A stretch of DNA of 34,249 bases from Synergistaceae bacterium (GTDB lineage: Bacteria; Synergistota; Synergistia; Synergistales; Synergistaceae): assembly GCA_030539135.1 (NCBI GenBank), contig JAUNSQ010000002.1, forward strand, positions 1 through 34,249. Direction: 5' to 3'. The translations under genes and the position numbers were made by a program. Each line of letters starts with the position of its first letter. Positions within the stretch are counted from its first letter, which is position 1. Positions 14,382-27,792 of the stretch are shown one piece after another. The notes beneath the pieces were generated by a model. The model was not told where the DNA came from and searched no databases. It worked only from the letters and a program-made list of their open reading frames with translations.

Positions 14382-15809
14382 TCACTTATCCTCCTTCGCT
14401 CTATTTGCGAATAGTATGAAGAGCAGCAGCGATAGAGCGCACCCCGGCAGTATCGGGTGCAGAGCGCCGACGACTCCGGGGGCGGCAATGCCCGTCATGC
14501 CCATTGACGTGGATTTGTAAGCGAACAGATACCAGAGTATCGAGCCGATAAATCCGCCGACCGATGAGAACATTGCCGCCCTTGCCCCAGCCTGCGGCCC
14601 CCTCGCTATGAGCATCAGGTACGGTACGATGATGGCGCAGGCTAGCAGAGTCCAACTGGTGGTGCAAATAAGGGCGATTATCGAGGAACTCTTGAGCGCG
14701 AACAGTCCGCTTGAAAACGTGCAGAGTACGACTACTATCCTCCAAGACCATCCCTCAAGGTTTTTGCCGAACACATCGCGCCCAAGGCTGCCGCTGGCTA
14801 TGTGCAGCAGAGCTGACGCGGTGGAGAGCGAAGCTGAGACGATAGCCAGCGCGAACAGCTGCTGCCCGAAGGCCGGGAGGAGCTGGCCGACCAGCATCGG
14901 CATCACAATATCAGGGTTCGTGATGTTCGGGCCGAGCAGCAGGCGCGAGAGCGCGCTTGCGAAGTACGCGCCGCCTACGACGACCGATAGCGCCAACATA
15001 GCCAGAGGGGCGGTCTTCCTTGTTTCGTTCAGGCTTTTGAGCGCAAAATGCCTTTGTATCAGTTGCGGCTGCGCCCAGATACCGACAGACGTTACGAGTG
15101 TCAGGAATATGATATTAAGTCCGGCCGGGCCGCCGCTCAGTGCCATAAAGCCGTTGTTGGCGGCCGGCGTCGGAGGCAGCGCGGCGAGCGCCTTCATCCC
15201 TGCGACAGGGCCGCCCACGGCCTTGAGCAGAGCTATAAGCAGAGCTCCGATCCCTATCGTCATGATAAGCCCCTGCGCAGCCTCGGTATAGAGCACTCCG
15301 CGCAATCCGCCCCATACGACGCTCATCCCTACGATGACCGCTAGAAGTATCAGCGCTGTGTTGACCGGTATCGCGATAACTCCCGCCAGCATGACCGCCG
15401 CCCCCTTAAATACTGCCGAGCCGTAGACGACCAGCAGAATAGTCGATATCGCTCCGAGGAAGACCTGCAGCGCGTGGGTCTCGTAGGCTTTTGAGAGCAG
15501 TTCCGCGGGAGTGCGCGAGTTCAGCTTCCTCTGCCAAAGGCGCGTCGGCCAAGCGAGGTAACGGTACACGAACCACGTGCCGAACCATACATTGCCCGCC
15601 GCTATCAGCAGCATCTGCATCCCGAAAAGGTAGCACAGCCCGCCGAAGCCGACCAGCGCGACCGCGGAGACGTATGTCGCAACGTAGGCGAGAGCCTGCA
15701 CCATGACGCTGACCTTTCCCGGCAGCAACGCGTCGCTGCCGCGCGAGAACTTGGCTATACCGATAAGAAGAAGAGCGTACGCGATCCAAAGAGGGATGAA
15801 GGTAAACAT
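14382..15809 (-). CDS. sodium:solute symporter family (SSF) transporter, substrate unknown
   Basis: 475 aa with about 13 TM helices. The N-terminal pattern (YVATYVSAVALVGFGG...G) is typical of SSF (PutP/PanF-like). Confidence 0.75.
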   Translation of the reverse strand: MFTFIPLWIAYALLLIGIAKFSRGSDALLPGKVSVMVQALAYVATYVSAVALVGFGGLCYLFGMQMLLIAAGNVWFGTWFVYRYLAWPTRLWQRKLNSRTPAELLSKAYETHALQVFLGAISTILLVVYGSAVFKGAAVMLAGVIAIPVNTALILLAVIVGMSVVWGGLRGVLYTEAAQGLIMTIGIGALLIALLKAVGGPVAGMKALAALPPTPAANNGFMALSGGPAGLNIIFLTLVTSVGIWAQPQLIQRHFALKSLNETRKTAPLAMLALSVVVGGAYFASALSRLLLGPNITNPDIVMPMLVGQLLPAFGQQLFALAIVSASLSTASALLHIASGSLGRDVFGKNLEGWSWRIVVVLCTFSSGLFALKSSSIIALICTTSWTLLACAIIVPYLMLIARGPQAGARAAMFSSVGGFIGSILWYLFAYKSTSMGMTGIAAPGVVGALHPILPGCALSLLLFILFANRAKEDK

Positions 15810-15810
15810 C

Positions 15811-15915
15811 TTATTTGACCGCGGCTCTCTTGATTATCATAAAGGCCGACCACGCCGCGCTCCAAAGAAGAGAAGCTCCCGAGAACACTACCCACATATC
15901 CGTTGATGAAAACAT
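15811..15915 (-). CDS. 34-aa single-TM peptide translationally coupled to the symporter (candidate small subunit)
   Basis: MFSSTDMWVVFSGASLLWSAAWSAFMIIKRAAVK. AAAGGGG lies upstream of the ATG at 15915. Its stop codon is 1 nt from the symporter ATG. Confidence 0.55.
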   Translation of the reverse strand: MFSSTDMWVVFSGASLLWSAAWSAFMIIKRAAVK

Positions 15916-15979
15916 TTGTAAAACCCCTTTCCGTATTTGAAAACCCTTGTTCGAATTTTTATAAAAACGCGCGCATAAC

Positions 15980-16013
15980 AAAAAGACCGCCATCCCTCAG
16001 GACGGCGGTCTTC
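15980..16013 (-). terminator. intrinsic terminator inside the 5' leader of the symporter operon (attenuator)
   Basis: Minus strand reads GAAGACCGCCGUCC-UGAG-GGAUGGCGGUCUUUUU, a 14-bp stem with a tetraloop and a U-run. It lies between the promoter/leader ORF and the first structural gene. Confidence 0.75.
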
Positions 16014-16039
16014 GAAATGTGCGGCTATTTTATACTAGC

Positions 16040-16147
16040 TTACCGGAATTCGCAGAAAACACCATTTGCCCCGAGGCGCTGTGAGCAGCGAGGATAAGAG
16101 TAAACATAATAATAATTGAACGCAAAGCTGTTATTCCGCATACACAT
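16040..16147 (-). CDS. Tyr-rich leader peptide (35 aa; 33 aa if it starts at the second ATG, 16141)
   Basis: MCMRNNSFAFNYYYVYSYPRCSQRLGANGVFCEFR. GAAGGAGG lies 3 nt upstream of the first ATG and 9 nt upstream of the second. Five Tyr codons fall within seven positions, with 2 Phe just upstream. Confidence 0.55.
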   Translation of the reverse strand: MCMRNNSFAFNYYYVYSYPRCSQRLGANGVFCEFR

Positions 16148-16186
16148 GTGCCTCCTTCAAAGGTGTTTTTCGTTTCATTGACGGGA

Positions 16187-16215
16187 ATTCTACACCCACT
16201 TTAGCGTGGTGTCAA
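16187..16215 (-). promoter_or_regulatory. near-consensus sigma70 promoter of the Tyr-leader/symporter transcript
   Basis: Minus strand reads TTGACA (16215-16210), exactly 17 nt, then TAGAAT (16192-16187). Confidence 0.6.
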
Positions 16216-16260
16216 GTGTGAGTGGTAAAACCTACAAGTGGTAAAGTATTTCATATAGCA

Positions 16261-16293
16261 AATTAAAATAGGAGAGGCGTTTGCCCCTCCTAT
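16261..16293 (-). terminator. terminator of the nitroreductase gene
   Basis: Minus strand reads ATAGGAGGGGCAAACGCCTCTCCTAT followed by TTTAATTT. Confidence 0.6.
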
Positions 16294-16310
16294 AGCTGTC
16301 TGTATCGTCT

Positions 16311-16850
16311 TTATTCCACGAACCTTGCTATTTCTTCGAGAGGTTTGCGTTTCTTGGGGCGGACGGTTCCGTCCGTCGGATGCCCGAGCGCTACGACGAC
16401 ACGTATCGTCTGACCGGAGGGGATGTCTAGGAGCCTCTTGACCTCGTCTTCGTCGAACGTTCCCATGATGCAGGAAGCGAGCCCAAGCTCCGCGGCCCTG
16501 AGGGTTATGCAGACGACGGCGGCTCCGAGGTCTCCCTGCGCGAACTGCTTGCAGCTCCACTTTTCAAGAACGGCTGGCATGAGCCTTGGGCATTCCTCTT
16601 CGCATACTACGATGAGGGCCGGTACGTTCTCGGAGAATTTGTTTCCGTCCACGCACTGCAAAAGCTCCGAGAGCTTATGTCTCTTTTCGGCGTTCGTTAC
16701 GACTACGAAGTTCCACGGCTGGCTGTTGCATCCCGACGGGGCCAGACGCGCAGCGTCAAGGCACGCGTTTATCTCTTCCTTCGTCACGGGCGCGCCGTCG
16801 TATGAGCGGCAGCTTTGGCGCGTTGCCATCAGTTCCATAAAATCTTTCAT
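16311..16850 (-). CDS. nitroreductase-family flavoprotein
   Basis: Contains RQSCRSY, APSGCNSQPW, and VVALGHP near the C-terminus. AAGGAGAG SD. Confidence 0.85.
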   Translation of the reverse strand: MKDFMELMATRQSCRSYDGAPVTKEEINACLDAARLAPSGCNSQPWNFVVVTNAEKRHKLSELLQCVDGNKFSENVPALIVVCEEECPRLMPAVLEKWSCKQFAQGDLGAAVVCITLRAAELGLASCIMGTFDEDEVKRLLDIPSGQTIRVVVALGHPTDGTVRPKKRKPLEEIARFVE

Positions 16851-23083: not shown

Positions 23084-23158
23084 ATGTTGCGCAAGTCATT
23101 CAATAACAACATCATTATTATAATTAACGCGGCTCCTCCTCGCAGGATCGGCGTCTAG
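23084..23158 (+). CDS. Ile-run leader peptide (24 aa)
   Basis: MLRKSFNNNIIIIINAAPPRRIGV. GGGAGGG lies 7 nt upstream of the ATG. There are five consecutive Ile codons (ATC ATT ATT ATA ATT, 23111-23125) and a sixth near the end. Confidence 0.65.
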   Translation: MLRKSFNNNIIIIINAAPPRRIGV

Positions 23159-23180: not shown

Positions 23181-23216
23181 GGGAGCCTTTCACGATTGTG
23201 AGGGGCTCCTTTTTTT
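23181..23216 (+). terminator. intrinsic terminator (attenuator) upstream of the OFOR operon
   Basis: GGGAGCCUUUCAC-GAUU-GUGAGGGGCUCC forms a 12-13 bp stem followed by UUUUUUU. It sits 29 nt upstream of the gamma-subunit ATG. Confidence 0.8.
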
Positions 23217-23244: not shown

Positions 23245-23823
23245 ATGGAAAAAGGCAAGACGATCGAAGTACGCTGGCACGGACGCGGGGGACAGGGAGC
23301 GAAGAGCGCTTCCGCGATACTAGCTGAGGTGCTGTTTGAGGGAGGAAAACACGTGCAGGCTTTCCCGGAGTACGGAGCGGAGCGTCAGGGTGCGCCGATG
23401 CGAGCCTATAACAGGGTCTCCGACAGGCCCATACGCCGCCGCTGCGGGGTCCAGAACCCAAATATAGTCGTCGTCGTAGACCCGACGATGGTCGAGAGCG
23501 CAAACCCATGCGAGGGCTGCGCGAAGGACGCCGTATATCTCGTGAACACGCCGGAGGACGCGAAGACCCTGCGCGAGAGGATGCACCTCTCACAGCGCGC
23601 GAAAGTGCTGGCGGTAGACGCTACGAAGATAACGCTCGAGGAGCTTGGGCAGAACAGGCCGAACGCGCCGATACTCGGAGCGCTGTCGAGGATATTCACG
23701 GACGTATCCGTAGATAATTTCGCCGACCACTTCACGAAGAAGATGAAGAAGCTGCCGCAGAACGTCATAGACGCGAACCGCAGGGCGATACTCAGAGGCC
23801 GCGAAGAGGCGGTGCTGGCATGA
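23245..23823 (+). CDS. 2-oxoacid:ferredoxin oxidoreductase, gamma subunit (POR/VOR family)
   Basis: Contains GRGGQGAKSASAILAE...AFPEYGAERQGAP. AAAGGAGG SD. Confidence 0.85.
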   Translation: MEKGKTIEVRWHGRGGQGAKSASAILAEVLFEGGKHVQAFPEYGAERQGAPMRAYNRVSDRPIRRRCGVQNPNIVVVVDPTMVESANPCEGCAKDAVYLVNTPEDAKTLRERMHLSQRAKVLAVDATKITLEELGQNRPNAPILGALSRIFTDVSVDNFADHFTKKMKKLPQNVIDANRRAILRGREEAVLA

Positions 23824-24164
23824 GCGAACCGCAGTGCTGGCAGGACGTCGCTCCCGGGACTGTCGCTTTCGGCGCGACCGCGCTGGAAGTGGAGACCGGG
23901 CTTTGGCGGAGCGTGCGTCCTGTCTTCGACCTCAATAAATGCGTGTCATGTATGAAATGCTGGTTCCAGTGCCCGGATATGTCAGTCAAACTGGGCGAAG
24001 GCGGCAAGGTTTGCGGAGCAGACCTCTTCTTCTGCAAGGGCTGCGGGATATGCGCTTCCGTCTGTCCGGTGAAAGCCGTAACGATGCGTCCCGAATCAGA
24101 TTTCAGCGACGAACGTGATAAACATGGCGCGAACCCCGGAGGCGTGGCCGACCATGTCAAATAA
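23820..24164 (+). CDS. 2-oxoacid:ferredoxin oxidoreductase, delta subunit (2x[4Fe-4S] ferredoxin-type)
   Basis: Contains CVSCMKCWFQCP and CKGCGICASVCP. ATGA overlap with the gamma subunit gene. Confidence 0.85.
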   Translation: MSEPQCWQDVAPGTVAFGATALEVETGLWRSVRPVFDLNKCVSCMKCWFQCPDMSVKLGEGGKVCGADLFFCKGCGICASVCPVKAVTMRPESDFSDERDKHGANPGGVADHVK

Positions 24165-25347
24165 GAGACGCGAGATGACCTCGGGAAACTTGGCTTTCGC
24201 CGAGGCGATGAGGCAGATAAATCCAGACGTCGTAGCCGCGTACCCTATAACCCCGTCCACCGATATCCCCGTCCGCTTCGCCGAATTTGTCGCGAACGGG
24301 CAGGTAGATTCCGAATATGTTGCGGTCGAGAGCGAGCACTCCGCGATAACGGCATGCGTGGGCGCGTCCGTCGCCGGCGCGCGCGTCATGACCGCGTCGA
24401 GCGCCAACGGAGTCGCGCTGATGCATGAGATATTCCCTATAGCTTCGGCCTTTAGGGCCCCGATCGTATTTGGCCTTGTGAACAGATGCCTCGGAGCGCC
24501 GGTCAATATCCACTGCGACCATTCGGACAGCATGGCCGAGCGAGATTCTGGGTGGATACAGATATACTGCGAGGACGCGCAGGAAGTCTACGACAGCGTG
24601 CTTCTCGCGGTCAGGCTGGCGGAGCATAAGAAGGTGCTTACTCCTGTGTTCGTCTGTCAGGACGGATTTATAACGAGCCATTGTTTTGAGCCTGTGGAAT
24701 TCCTCGCCGACGACGCGGTGAAAAAATTTGTCGGCGTCCGCGACCCGCAGTACCCCCTGCTTGACGTTGACAACCCCGTTTCATACGGCTCGTTCACGAT
24801 GTCCGAATACTATTTTGAGATCAAACGCAATCAGATAGAGGGCATCAACAACGTGCCGAAAGTATATCGCGAACTGTCGGCGGAGTTGGCGAAAGAGACC
24901 GGCCGCGAATATCCGATGGTCGACGCTTACAGGGCCGACGACGCGGACTATCTGATAATCATCATGTCCTCCGCGTCGGGAGTCGTCAAGGACGTCGTCG
25001 ATGAGATGCGCGAGGACGGCGTAAAGGCAGGATGTCTGCGCGTGAGGTTTTTCCGCCCGTTTCCGAAGGACGACTTGATGCGCCTTGTGAACGGCAAGAA
25101 GGGAGTCGCCGTTCTTGACAGGTGCCTTAGCATCGGAGGTTCGGCCCCGCTTGCCGCGGAGGTCAAGGCCGCGCTCTATGGGCTTGAACGCCGCGTGCCT
25201 GTGCAGGAATATGTGTTCGGCCTCGGAGGCCGCGATTTCTATCCAAAGGACGCCATCGACGTGTTCTGCAAGCTGGCCGATGATAATTACAGCCCGTCAG
25301 TGCGTTACATAGGCCTCCGCGAGAAGGAGGAAGAAAATGTCTATTGA
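24154..25347 (+). CDS. 2-oxoacid:ferredoxin oxidoreductase, alpha subunit
   Basis: Contains GNLAFAEAMRQINPDVVAAYPITPSTDI. The start is uncertain (ATG at 24154 or 24175); the track start at 24115 is probably too early. Confidence 0.85.
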   Translation: MSNKRREMTSGNLAFAEAMRQINPDVVAAYPITPSTDIPVRFAEFVANGQVDSEYVAVESEHSAITACVGASVAGARVMTASSANGVALMHEIFPIASAFRAPIVFGLVNRCLGAPVNIHCDHSDSMAERDSGWIQIYCEDAQEVYDSVLLAVRLAEHKKVLTPVFVCQDGFITSHCFEPVEFLADDAVKKFVGVRDPQYPLLDVDNPVSYGSFTMSEYYFEIKRNQIEGINNVPKVYRELSAELAKETGREYPMVDAYRADDADYLIIIMSSASGVVKDVVDEMREDGVKAGCLRVRFFRPFPKDDLMRLVNGKKGVAVLDRCLSIGGSAPLAAEVKAALYGLERRVPVQEYVFGLGGRDFYPKDAIDVFCKLADDNYSPSVRYIGLREKEEENVY

Positions 25348-26266
25348 TCTCAAGGAACTCATAAAGAAGCCGAACCCCCTTACTCAGGGGCATCGCATGT
25401 GCCCGGGCTGCGGAGCGCCGACGGCGATACGCCAAGCTCTCATGGCTGTGGACGACCCAGTAGTTATCGTGGGGGCCACGGGGTGCATGGAGGTATCGAC
25501 GACTGTATATCCATACAGCGCGTGGCGCGTCCCGTTCATGCACGTGGCTTTTGAGAACGCGGGGGCTGGAATATCCGGCGTGCAGGCCGCGCATAAGGTA
25601 TTGAGCAGACAGGGCCGCGCGAAAGAGGGTATTAAATTCGTCGCGTTCGGCGGTGACGGGGGAACGTACGATATCGGGCTTCAGTCGCTCTCAGGCGCGC
25701 TAGAACGCGGGCATGACTTTACGTACATCTGCTACAACAATCAGGGCTACATGAACACGGGGGCGCAGAGGAGCAGCGCTACGCCGCTGAACGCGAGCGC
25801 GACCACCTCGCCCGCCGGGAGCGTCATCCCCGGAAAATTGCAGAGGGCGAAAGACCTTACGGAGATCGTAGCGGCACACAACATACCTTATGTTGCGCAG
25901 ACGACGTTGCACGACCCTATGGACCTCATAAAGAAAGTCAAGAGGGCCGTAGAGACGCCCGGCCCGGCGTTCGTCAACGTGCTCGTCCCGTGCGTCCTCT
26001 TCTGGAAGATAGACCAAGGCGACCAGATGAAGATATGTCAGTTGGCCGCCGACAGCCGTTTCTGGCCCGTGTACGAGGTCGCGGGCGGGAAATACAGCCT
26101 ATCATACAAGCCGAAGAAGGACGTCCCGCTTGAGGACTTTCTTCGCGCGCAGGGCAGATACTCGCACCTCTTCAAAAAGGGCAGGGAGCGCATGGACCTC
26201 GTAGCGGCCGCGCAGGCCGACGTTGACGAGAGCTGGAAGAAACTGCTTGTGAAGTGCGCGCTCTAA
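25337..26266 (+). CDS. 2-oxoacid:ferredoxin oxidoreductase, beta (TPP-binding) subunit
   Basis: Contains GHRMCPGCG and FGGDGGTYDIG...NNQGYMNTG. Confidence 0.85.
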   Translation: MSIDLKELIKKPNPLTQGHRMCPGCGAPTAIRQALMAVDDPVVIVGATGCMEVSTTVYPYSAWRVPFMHVAFENAGAGISGVQAAHKVLSRQGRAKEGIKFVAFGGDGGTYDIGLQSLSGALERGHDFTYICYNNQGYMNTGAQRSSATPLNASATTSPAGSVIPGKLQRAKDLTEIVAAHNIPYVAQTTLHDPMDLIKKVKRAVETPGPAFVNVLVPCVLFWKIDQGDQMKICQLAADSRFWPVYEVAGGKYSLSYKPKKDVPLEDFLRAQGRYSHLFKKGRERMDLVAAAQADVDESWKKLLVKCAL

Positions 26267-26367: not shown

Positions 26368-26427
26368 ATGGTATCAGTTCTTGCGAACGACATGAATAAA
26401 ACAAACTGGTGGTGGCTTCGCGCTTAG
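26368..26427 (+). CDS. Trp-run leader peptide (19 aa)
   Basis: MVSVLANDMNKTNWWWLRA. AGGGGA lies 8 nt upstream of the ATG. There are three consecutive UGG codons at 26407-26415. Confidence 0.65.
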   Translation: MVSVLANDMNKTNWWWLRA

Positions 26428-26460
26428 AATGCCCGCCGGTTTCCCTGTGTATTGATGTAA

Positions 26461-26499
26461 GGGCTCGGACGGGTAAAACGTCGGAGCCCTTTTTATTTT
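26461..26499 (+). terminator. intrinsic terminator T1 (attenuator) upstream of trpB
   Basis: GGGCUCGGACG-GGUAAAA-CGUCGGAGCCC (10 bp, one G.G mismatch) followed by UUUUUAUUUU. Confidence 0.75.
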
Positions 26500-26506
26500 G
26501 GAAGAG

Positions 26507-26544
26507 ATGAAAGGGGAGGAAACAAACCCCTTTCATTTTTTTAT
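26507..26544 (+). terminator. second intrinsic terminator T2 in the trpB leader
   Basis: AUGAAAGGGG-AGGAAACAAA-CCCCUUUCAU forms a perfect 10-bp stem followed by UUUUUUUA. Confidence 0.65.
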
Positions 26545-26595: not shown

Positions 26596-27792
26596 ATGAC
26601 AACAAGGACAGCAGGTTTTCCAGAGGGAAAAATGTACGGGAATTTCGGCGGCATGTACGTGCCGAAGGAACTAGAGCCGATAATGACGGAGATCGCCGCG
26701 GAATACGAGAAGTGCAAGGCCGACCCTACGTTCAAAGAAGAATATCTAAGGCTCATGAAGGAATATGTCGGCCGCCCGTCCGCGCTGACAGAATGCGGGA
26801 ACCTTTCAAAAGAGACAGGAGGCGCGCGTATCTTCCTAAAGCGCGAAGACCTGAACCATACCGGAGCGCACAAGATAAACAACTGCATCGGACAGGCCCT
26901 TCTTGCCCGCCGCATGGGAAAGAAAAAGATAATAGCCGAGACTGGAGCCGGGATGCACGGAGTCGCCGCCGCGACCGTAGCCGCCCTGATGGGCATGGAG
27001 TGCGACATCTATATGGGAGCTGTGGACGTGGCGCGTCAGGCTCCGAACGTACTGCGCATGAAGGCTCTGGGGGCGCGGGTCGTATCCGTCGAGGCGGGAC
27101 AGAAGACATTGAAGGAGGCCGTCGACGCGGCGCTCGGCGCGCTGTGCGAGGACACGTCGCTCTTCTACCTCATAGGCTCTGCGGTGGGGCCGCACCCGTA
27201 TCCGGCGATGGTGCAGGACTTCCAGCGGATAATAGGCGACGAGGCGAGGGCGCAGATGCTTGAGCGCGAAGGCCGTCTGCCCGACGCGGTAGTCGCTTGC
27301 GTAGGCGGCGGGAGCAACGCGATAGGGGCTTTCACGGCTTTCATAAACGACAAAGGCGTGAGGCTCATCGGAGTCGAGCCTTCCGGCCGCGGGCTGACCT
27401 ATGGCAACCACGCCGCGTCTCTCACGATGGGCAGGCCCGGCGTTCTTCACGGATTTAAGAGCTATGTGCTGACGAAGGACGACGGCGAACCCGCGGAAGT
27501 ATATTCGATAGCGGCGGGGCTCGATTATCCGTCAGTTGGCCCCGCTCACGCCGCGCTCAAAGAGAGCGGCCGCGGCGAGTATATAGGCGCGAGCGACGCG
27601 GAGGCGTTAGACGCCTTCAAGCTCCTCTGCCGCACCGAGGGCATAATCCCCGCGCTTGAAAGCTCGCACGCCTTGGCAGGGGCTCTCAAAGCAGCGAAGA
27701 CCATGAAGGCGGGAGACATCATCCTAGTCAACCTCTCCGGCCGCGGCGACAAAGATATGGAGACCATCGCGAAATTAGGGATATTGGATTAA
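26596..27792 (+). CDS. trpB: tryptophan synthase beta chain (TrpB1-type), stand-alone
   Basis: Contains [15 protein letters not shown] (PLP lysine), [16 protein letters not shown] and SGRGDKD. GAGGAGG SD. No trpA or other trp genes are in the window. Confidence 0.9.

Follow-up and report, generated by a model that had tools for sequence, protein, structure and literature searches.

The stretch of DNA considered here, hereafter the window, covers positions 1 to 34,249 of contig JAUNSQ010000002.1 from a Synergistaceae bacterium (assembly GCA_030539135.1). On its minus strand, in front of the genes for a 34-aa peptide and a sodium:solute symporter of the SSF family, lies a short leader that very probably acts as a ribosome-mediated transcription attenuator, with tyrosine codons as its regulatory codons and the peptide and symporter genes as the operon under its control. 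Ribosome-mediated attenuation had been proposed for this leader in a first-pass annotation made from the sequence. The proposal is supported by the conservation of a Shine-Dalgarno (SD)-led open reading frame (ORF), a tyrosine run and a terminator, by the bias of the tyrosine codons towards a single frame, and by covariation in the terminator stem. Each of the minus-strand elements listed in that annotation was found to be present.

The leader ORF is preceded by the SD sequence GGAGG (16151-16155, minus strand, as are all elements of the leader operon), which can be read directly in the sequence and is part of an AGGAGG that is nearly invariant in the alignment of orthologues. The sequence GAAGGAGG is followed by an ORF at 16147-16040 with the product MCMRNNSFAFNYYYVYSYPRCSQRLGANGVFCEFR. 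This is the mini-ORF described originally, and its five tyrosines in seven codons are confirmed, whereas its start is better placed two codons further downstream. The ATG at 16147 follows GGAGG after 3 nt, while the in-frame ATG at 16141 follows it after 9 nt and is aligned with the starts of the orthologues. For these two reasons ATG 16141 is the likelier start, giving a 33-aa peptide, MRNNSFAFNYYYVYSYPRCSQRLGANGVFCEFR, that ends at the stop codon 16042-16040 (from 16147 there would be 35 codons); the finding itself is not altered by this shift. The regulatory codons form the run Y-Y-Y-V-Y-S-Y (TAT TAT TAT GTT TAC TCT TAT) at 16114-16094, five of the seven being Tyr, and F-A-F-N stands directly 5' of it. 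Across all six frames of the window, at least five TAY codons (TAT or TAC) in seven are encountered at this place only, and any run of this kind appeared in 2 of 200 shuffled windows.

The leader stop codon is followed, 26 nt further on and ahead of the structural genes, by an intrinsic terminator, GAAGACCGCCGUCC-UGAG-GGAUGGCGGUCUUU with a U-run (16013-15976). Its 14-bp stem and tetraloop span 16013-15982 and the U-run extends to about 15976. The predicted folding energy is -24.8 kcal/mol (z = -7.1), and none of 200 shuffles was as good. Stem, tetraloop and U-run had all been recognised in the earlier annotation, and both the fold and the covariation support the terminator. The terminator was found in approximately 26 of the 26 leaders analysed. 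In the alignment referred to here as A2, double changes are seen at five of its base pairs, in 17 cells, which none of 500 shuffles could reach. The 5' arm of the terminator, together with the UUC just upstream and with part of the loop, constitutes region 3 of a candidate antiterminator.

The transporter has orthologues throughout Synergistota, and its relatives are almost all from this phylum, namely from Synergistaceae, Cloacibacillus, Synergistes and Thermovirgaceae. Forty-six loci, each from the genome of a different species, were fetched, and are designated here by L numbers. At nearly every locus with enough upstream DNA, an SD-led ORF, a Tyr-rich run, a stop codon and a terminator occur in this order. 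The orthologous layout begins with a promoter and an ORF of 30-41 codons, in which a variable N-terminus is followed by the Tyr run. The stop codon of this ORF is separated by 8-45 nt from a strong intrinsic terminator, and the genes for the small peptide and the transporter come next; this layout is kept down to 55-60% transporter identity. The complete set holds 54 leaders, representing 43 distinct DNAs, all but one from Synergistota, and all 54 are open from the SD-linked start to the stop. Examples are the leaders of L001, MPADMFKNVSYYYAYSYPRCDHASGLLVFSAKSESA, and L009, MGKALFNNNYYYYFYAYPRTYDASGFLVFSSK; that of L028 begins MQRTQKRGQLGSYVYSYMYAPRRC, those of L031 and L035 contain GKGQAYLYAYAPVQ and GSLYRYYYAYHGP, respectively, and that of L039, from a Thermovirga with 56% transporter identity, begins MATSQAFVFNYYYYLYFTPHR. 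A scan of metagenomes with a conserved leader word yielded 20 further true leaders. All 19 of the metagenomic leaders for which downstream DNA is available precede the same transporter, and therefore the leader belongs to that gene. In this way, the ORF, its Tyr run and the terminator are directly observed as parts of the system, and so is the conservation of all three.

The manner in which the leader has been conserved is informative. Among the 43 distinct leaders, 225 TAY triplets lie in the frame of the ORF, compared with 21 and 29 in the other two frames, while TAT (154) and TAC (71) interchange at the same positions between orthologues. Tyrosine is also the commonest residue of the leader peptides, at 14.6%. 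The first-pass annotation had suggested comparing orthologous symporter leaders for conservation of the run, and it is indeed conserved there and locked to the frame. Conservation by codon position was followed in a 17-sequence alignment of the window's own group. Here, the Tyr codons vary synonymously only. The nine N-terminal codons are approximately 50% conserved at all three positions, so that the frame is open and its sequence free. Further downstream, no codon position varies in GCC UCG GGG, and hardly any does in GUG UUU UCU. It follows from this pattern that selection has acted on the run at the level of its codons and on the RNA sequence in the 3' half of the ORF, as expected of a leader-peptide attenuator. 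The part selected as RNA includes region 2, a segment within the last 11 codons of the leader ORF.

Two pairings are predicted for this part of the RNA. Hairpin A (16093-16069, -8.1 kcal/mol) begins immediately 3' of the last Tyr codon and is formed by CCUCG (16093-16089) and CGGGG (16073-16069); in the window, a nested local stem, CGCUG/CAGCG, also forms inside it. In the 17 sequences, 100% of the cells in hairpin A are paired, and the changes are from U-G to C-G only. The distant groups have a small G+C hairpin with other sequences at this site (CUCCGG:CCGGAG, CCCG:CGGG). Hairpin A is a candidate for a pause hairpin or for a 1:2 hairpin. Region 2, the predicted 5' strand of the antiterminator (UCGGGGC-aaau-GGUG-uuu-UCU-g-CGAA, 16074-16049), pairs with 16016-15997 in folds where the Tyr run is masked as if occupied by a ribosome. 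The helix in the window would consist of four parts: UCGGGGC (16074-68) with GUCCUGA (16003-15997), GGUG (16063-60) with CGCC (16007-04), UCU (16056-54) with AGA (16011-09), and CGAA (16052-49) with UUCG (16016-13). The resulting hairpin folds at -22.0 kcal/mol.

Minimum free energy (MFE) structures were calculated with the mask on the Tyr run and with the RNA cut at the terminator loop. In most leaders, the terminator 5' arm is paired in these structures with sequence from the 3' part of the ORF; with the mask placed at the stop codon, this pairing is impossible. On alignment A2, 86% of the cells pair in the antiterminator register, as against 34-60% in slid registers. At columns 194-196 the 5' arm varies in a way that preserves the terminator; even there, 48 of the 51 cells can still pair with region 2, largely because region 2 has U, which pairs with both G and A. 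In addition, region 2 resembles a C-to-U wobble copy of the 3' arm of the terminator. RNAalifold, applied to a truncated alignment, independently recovers UGGUG:CGCCG and UCU:GGA. The antiterminator suggested tentatively in the first-pass annotation is thereby retained in its core, GGUG:CGCC, although it is statistically weak.

Several observations weigh against the attenuator as drawn here. When the change in folding energy on adding the 5' arm (ddG) was compared with 200 dinucleotide shuffles per leader, the antiterminator was no better than the shuffles, with a mean z of about -0.5 for 26 leaders. The antiterminator hairpin of the window has a z of -1.2, and 22 of 200 shuffles were as good. 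The helix is rich in G-U pairs. Where the helix overlaps the terminator there is almost no covariation, since neither strand shows much variation among the alignable leaders; real covariation is limited to column pair 148/188, in the lower helix and beyond the terminator. Among the more distant groups, the 5' arm has a less consistently predicted partner. Furthermore, the invariant block GCCUCGGGG has three possible partners, namely hairpin A, the SD sequence and the top of the terminator; the last of these pairings holds in the window, L001, L004 and L017, and fails in L009 and L012. One leader, that of L019 (2686-2733), is degenerate, MSLFRFESCFNCSCS, and has no Tyr run. An operator-like repeat and a weakened terminator are kept at this locus, which may therefore have lost attenuation. 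Lastly, the gene neighbourhoods (PEP carboxykinase, a MATE pump, chaperones) give no metabolic hint as to the substrate. Since the gain in energy is not above that of shuffles, the pairing of region 2 with the terminator 5' arm is regarded here as plausible, and is not claimed as demonstrated.

A sequence of events can nevertheless be proposed for the attenuator. Transcription would start at about 16180, and a ribosome would load at GGAGG/AUG (16141) and trail the polymerase. When Tyr-tRNA is well charged, the ribosome would reach the stop codon at 16042-16040 and cover the 3' half of region 2 (UCU, CGAA). Hairpin A would then re-form behind the ribosome, region 3 would be free and the terminator would form, giving a leader RNA of approximately 200 nt. 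When charged Tyr-tRNA is scarce, the ribosome would stall within 16114-16094 and hold the CCUCG strand of hairpin A. The freed region 2 could then pair with the emerging 5' arm of the terminator, and the polymerase would read through into the peptide and symporter genes. The switching, the role of the ribosome and the response to charged tRNA are inferred.

A third pairing may set the default state. The segment AAAACACCUUUG (16169-16158) of the 5' untranslated region (5'UTR) can pair, in the MFE structure of the full leader, with CAAAUGGUGUUUU of region 2 (16068-16056). In 10 of 10 group-A leaders, the MFE structure contains both the terminator and a pairing between the 5'UTR/SD and the region-2 zone. 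The duplex in the window has a z of -1.9 and was matched or bettered by 13 of 300 shuffles; across 19 leaders, z averages -0.76. The segment is a candidate anti-antiterminator and closing helix. Without translation, the 5'UTR/SD would pair with region 2 and the terminator would form, so that the operon would be off by default.

The specificity of the proposed attenuator has to be considered separately from its mechanism. Attenuation might be just the same while the sensor is a general aromatic one (Phe and Tyr), or one for Phe, with the symporter acting as a general carrier of aromatic amino acids or aryl acids; this is unlikely, although some evidence can be cited in its favour. F-A-F-N precedes the run in the window, and L009, L017 and L039 mix Phe into the run itself, which counts against tyrosine as the sole signal. 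So does the AroR leader of Corynebacterium glutamicum, which contains Phe-Tyr-Phe and is reported to respond to Phe, not to Tyr (PMC11802643). However, Tyr strongly outnumbers Phe in each of the main-clade leaders, and the run is free of Phe in many of them (L003, L005, L026-L032).

The two loci at which Phe replaces Tyr bear on the same question. The leader of L042 (2589-2693) includes MHVLRQFAFFAFTFTRVQ (FAFFAFTFT), and that of L046 (2547-2672), on a Desulfovibrionaceae contig and without a clear SD sequence, contains ALFFGFFNFTRRP (LFFGFFNFT); both are followed by a terminator. The transporters of L042 and L046 belong to a clade outside all Tyr-leader transporters, and L042 is found in the same metagenome-assembled genome (MAG) as a Tyr-leader locus, L043. 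That a distinct clade has pure Phe runs argues for the two signals being kept apart and against a general aromatic sensor. On the other side, a leaderless paralogue consisting of the small peptide and SSF genes (L030, 86-2925), which shares a MAG with the Tyr-leader locus L027, lies directly behind a gene of the phenylacetate-CoA ligase (PaaK) family (TIGR02155, 505 bits), and this would fit aryl-acid or aromatic metabolism generally. Taken together, the Phe-leader clade and the PaaK neighbour of L030 tie the transporter family to aromatic compounds, and it can be argued that the leader encodes the amino-acid specificity. A queuosine-related reading, prompted by leaders in which Asn, His and Asp codons occur beside Tyr codons close to the run, was dropped, as only Tyr is universal.

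The leader RNA might also be an element that binds a ligand, as a riboswitch does, or a protein, for instance an antiterminator protein that recognises RNA, with the mini-ORF incidental or auxiliary. This is considered very improbable. The 5'UTR:region-2 helix does close a domain of approximately 90 nt before the terminator, which gives it a riboswitch-like outline, and no codon position varies within the blocks GCCUCGGGG and GGUGUUUUCU. Against this, the 5' half of the enclosed domain is unconserved as nucleotides and yet is an open frame of variable length, its TAY triplets are locked to the frame and vary synonymously, and distant groups replace the RNA sequence while keeping the logic of the peptide. 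The window has no match in Rfam 15 at the gathering score. For the leader (15700-16400), a search at E <= 10 returned none of Trp_leader, His_leader, Leu_leader, Thr_leader or Phe_leader; PyrR, RNAI and DUF3800-I appeared at 16-20 bits and can be dismissed as noise, because the terminator drives their scores. A T-box was ruled out, with no match to RF00230 at any threshold used, and a metabolite riboswitch was rejected on the absence of an Rfam match and on the 5' half being kept as an open frame only. A riboswitch or T-box fold in this leader, which according to the first-pass annotation would have spoken against attenuation, was thus sought in Rfam and none was found.

Slighter still is the chance that the mini-ORF encodes a TnaC-like arrest peptide sensing free tyrosine, or a micropeptide, and that the transporter is induced when tyrosine is abundant. 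Synergistota ferment amino acids, and induction by substrate would suit them; most leaders have a Pro codon after the run (YP, AP, TP, GP), and the C-terminal half is conserved as a peptide within group A (PRC..ASG.LVFS). Nevertheless, a TnaC-type sensor was rejected, as the conserved C-terminal codons are fixed at synonymous positions too, which points to a constraint on RNA rather than on the peptide, while the peptide differs wholly between groups apart from the Tyr run, the terminator 26 nt after the stop codon is intrinsic rather than a Rho site, and the exchange of Phe for Tyr in the sister clade fits the sensing of codons.

The structural genes downstream of the attenuator are two. The 34-aa peptide, MFSSTDMWVVFSGASLLWSAAWSAFMIIKRAAVK, is encoded at 15915-15811 and has a single membrane helix; its stop codon lies 1 nt before the ATG of the transporter gene. 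A homologous small ORF (M..D.W.. ..WS) of about 31-37 aa with a single helix abuts the transporter start in all loci. The window peptide has no match in Pfam or NCBIfam, and is probably an accessory subunit of the symporter. The symporter itself (475 aa, 15809-14382) matches the SSF family PF00474 at 1e-28. Its top NCBIfam match is panF, at 92 bits compared with a cut-off of 328 bits, and its subfamily is uncharacterised. The operon comprises the leader, the peptide and the symporter, because the next gene, encoding PEP carboxykinase, is convergent.

The transporter is most likely an importer of tyrosine (an aromatic amino acid) that is induced by tyrosine shortage. Taken by itself, import of tyrosine by the symporter has slightly better than even chances, as we infer the cargo from the regulatory logic alone. 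A broader proposal, somewhat short of even odds, is that these leaders represent a new, phylum-wide class of attenuators with Tyr codons (Phe codons in the sister clade), that the two-component SSF family consists of Na+-coupled Tyr/Phe importers, and that the Synergistaceae operon is also repressed by a HisR2-like protein, in a dual control of the trp style.

The last part of this proposal concerns the promoter. A sigma-70-type promoter, TTGACA-17-TAGAAT, at 16215-16187 matches 11 of 12 consensus positions, and so bears out its earlier identification. Most orthologues have TTGACA and TATNAT-like boxes at a similar distance, approximately 60-85 nt, from the leader start. An inverted repeat, CACTTgacaccacgctaAAGTG (CACTT-N12-AAGTG, 16218-16197), overlaps the -35 box and the spacer and is a candidate operator. 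A search for ACTT-N12-AAGT found this single match in the window. The operator-like repeat is also present at orthologous promoters: in one subgroup it has the 12-nt spacing and lies over the -35 box, and in a Cloacibacillus-like subgroup it takes the form cgcTTTAgttgcgAAAAgtg, just 3' of the -10 box. A CACTT-N10/12-AAGTG repeat is found approximately 55 nt before the leader start in L017, L018, L020, L009 and L022.

A motif of the TrpR-family regulator HisR, cacTTTAnnnnnnTAAAgtg, has been reported in Firmicutes and Synergistetes, and HisR2 paralogues have been linked to tyrosine genes (PMC9413887). The cgcTTTAgttgcgAAAAgtg form of the promoter repeat is close to this motif. It is possible, on the likeness of the motifs, that the inverted repeat is an operator for a TrpR-family (HisR-like) repressor, and the operon may possibly be subject to dual control by a repressor and the attenuator. 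A TrpR-family gene was not found in the window by tblastn with TrpR and YerC sequences as queries.

Further upstream, a direct repeat, TTTACCACT, occurs twice at 16221-16245 (minus strand), with the copies 16 nt apart, immediately before the -35 box. A similar word, GTTTTAYCAYTTGTA, is found 5' of the -35 box in L004, L005, L012 and L014. The direct repeat could be an UP element, or further operator half-sites. The upstream neighbour of the leader operon is a gene of the nitroreductase family (16850-16311, minus strand), which ends in a terminator of its own (16293-16268, minus strand, 11 pairs).

Two more leaders of the attenuator type are present on the plus strand of the window. An Ile leader, MLRKSFNNNIIIIINAAPPRRIGV, at 23084-23158, has a strong SD sequence and a terminator at 23181-23210. 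It is located directly upstream of the genes for a 2-oxoacid:ferredoxin oxidoreductase (gamma 23245-23823, alpha 24115-25347, beta 25337-26266), and its run, as in the Tyr leader, is immediately followed by CCUC/Pro-Arg codons. A Trp leader, MVSVLANDMNKTNWWWLRA, at 26369-26428, is followed by a terminator at approximately 26460-26499 and by a second hairpin with a T-run at approximately 26509-26541; both hairpins are upstream of trpB (26596-27792). The presence of these leaders with their terminators means that the organism uses leader-peptide attenuation elsewhere.

If confirmed, the Tyr leader would add a new regulatory amino acid and a new phylum to leader-peptide attenuation. It would also mean that in these amino-acid fermenters attenuation governs uptake as well as synthesis. 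For the SSF subfamily and its small peptide a substrate assignment can be offered, Tyr in the main clade and Phe in the sister clade. The Tyr leader of L043 and the Phe leader of L042, being in one genome, form a natural pair in which this specificity might be compared.

Leader-peptide attenuation is a 45-year-old paradigm, in which the regulatory amino acids are Trp, His, Phe, Leu, Thr and Ile/Val and, more lately, Cys and Pro. Neither Rfam 15 nor the literature searched holds a described Tyr-run leader, or an attenuator leader from Synergistota. Literature searches on Tyr-codon leaders, on attenuators in Synergistetes and on attenuated amino acid transporters gave as the nearest cases AroR, the upstream ORF (uORF) of Acholeplasma aroF, and BmrB. 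In a survey from 2010, leader peptides were known only from Proteobacteria and Actinobacteria, and the survey added Firmicutes (PMC2965389).

The pheA and pheST leaders (pheL) likewise combine a leader peptide containing a run of aromatic codons with a downstream terminator. The genes under known Phe leaders serve Phe biosynthesis or encode Phe-tRNA synthetase, and do not serve transport (PMC11802643, PMC3082878). The Phe leaders of L042 and L046 precede transporters homologous to that of the window and have the same layout, but with a Phe run where the window has Tyr. Similarly, aroR-aroF of C. glutamicum (PMC11802643) and uORFC-13-1 of Acholeplasma (PMC8632094) are aromatic-codon leaders outside Proteobacteria. 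They differ from the window leader in that aroR has a single Tyr codon and the Acholeplasma uORF has Phe codons, and in that both control DAHP synthase, with neither a Tyr run nor a transporter.

Control of a transporter gene by a leader also has precedents, and the same signal is known to be read in another way. In Tyr T-box leaders (tyrS and tyrosine genes of Firmicutes; RF00230), as in the proposed attenuator, the signal is scarce or uncharged tRNA-Tyr and the output is read-through of a terminator; unlike the attenuator, the T-box senses tRNA by direct binding, without translation. In mgtL-mgtA of Salmonella, a leader ORF attenuates transcription before a transporter gene, in response to a Pro-codon/Mg2+ signal. 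The mgtCBR system is related to it (PMC3641672). In BmrB-BmrCD of Bacillus subtilis, translation of the leader chooses between terminator and antiterminator before a transporter gene (PMC4191407); there, the signal is the slowing of ribosomes by antibiotics. In neither mgtL nor BmrB is the signal starvation for the presumed cargo.

The trpL leader of Escherichia coli (Trp_leader, RF00513) is the textbook case of ribosome-mediated attenuation. In structure the window leader resembles the trp, phe and his leaders, except that its antiterminator is not statistically firm. Like trpL, it has an SD-led leader ORF with clustered regulatory codons, and a small hairpin is predicted at or beside these codons. 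In trpL, one segment has a choice of two partners, the small hairpin or the terminator 5' arm, and a ribosome terminating at the stop codon masks this switching segment; the same choice and the same masking are predicted for the window leader. The trp promoter carries a TrpR operator, and here a putative operator is found at the promoter. The differences are that the regulatory codons are those for Tyr and number 4-8 instead of two, that the predicted antiterminator is much richer in G-U pairs, and that the target, in Synergistota, is a transporter rather than a biosynthetic pathway.

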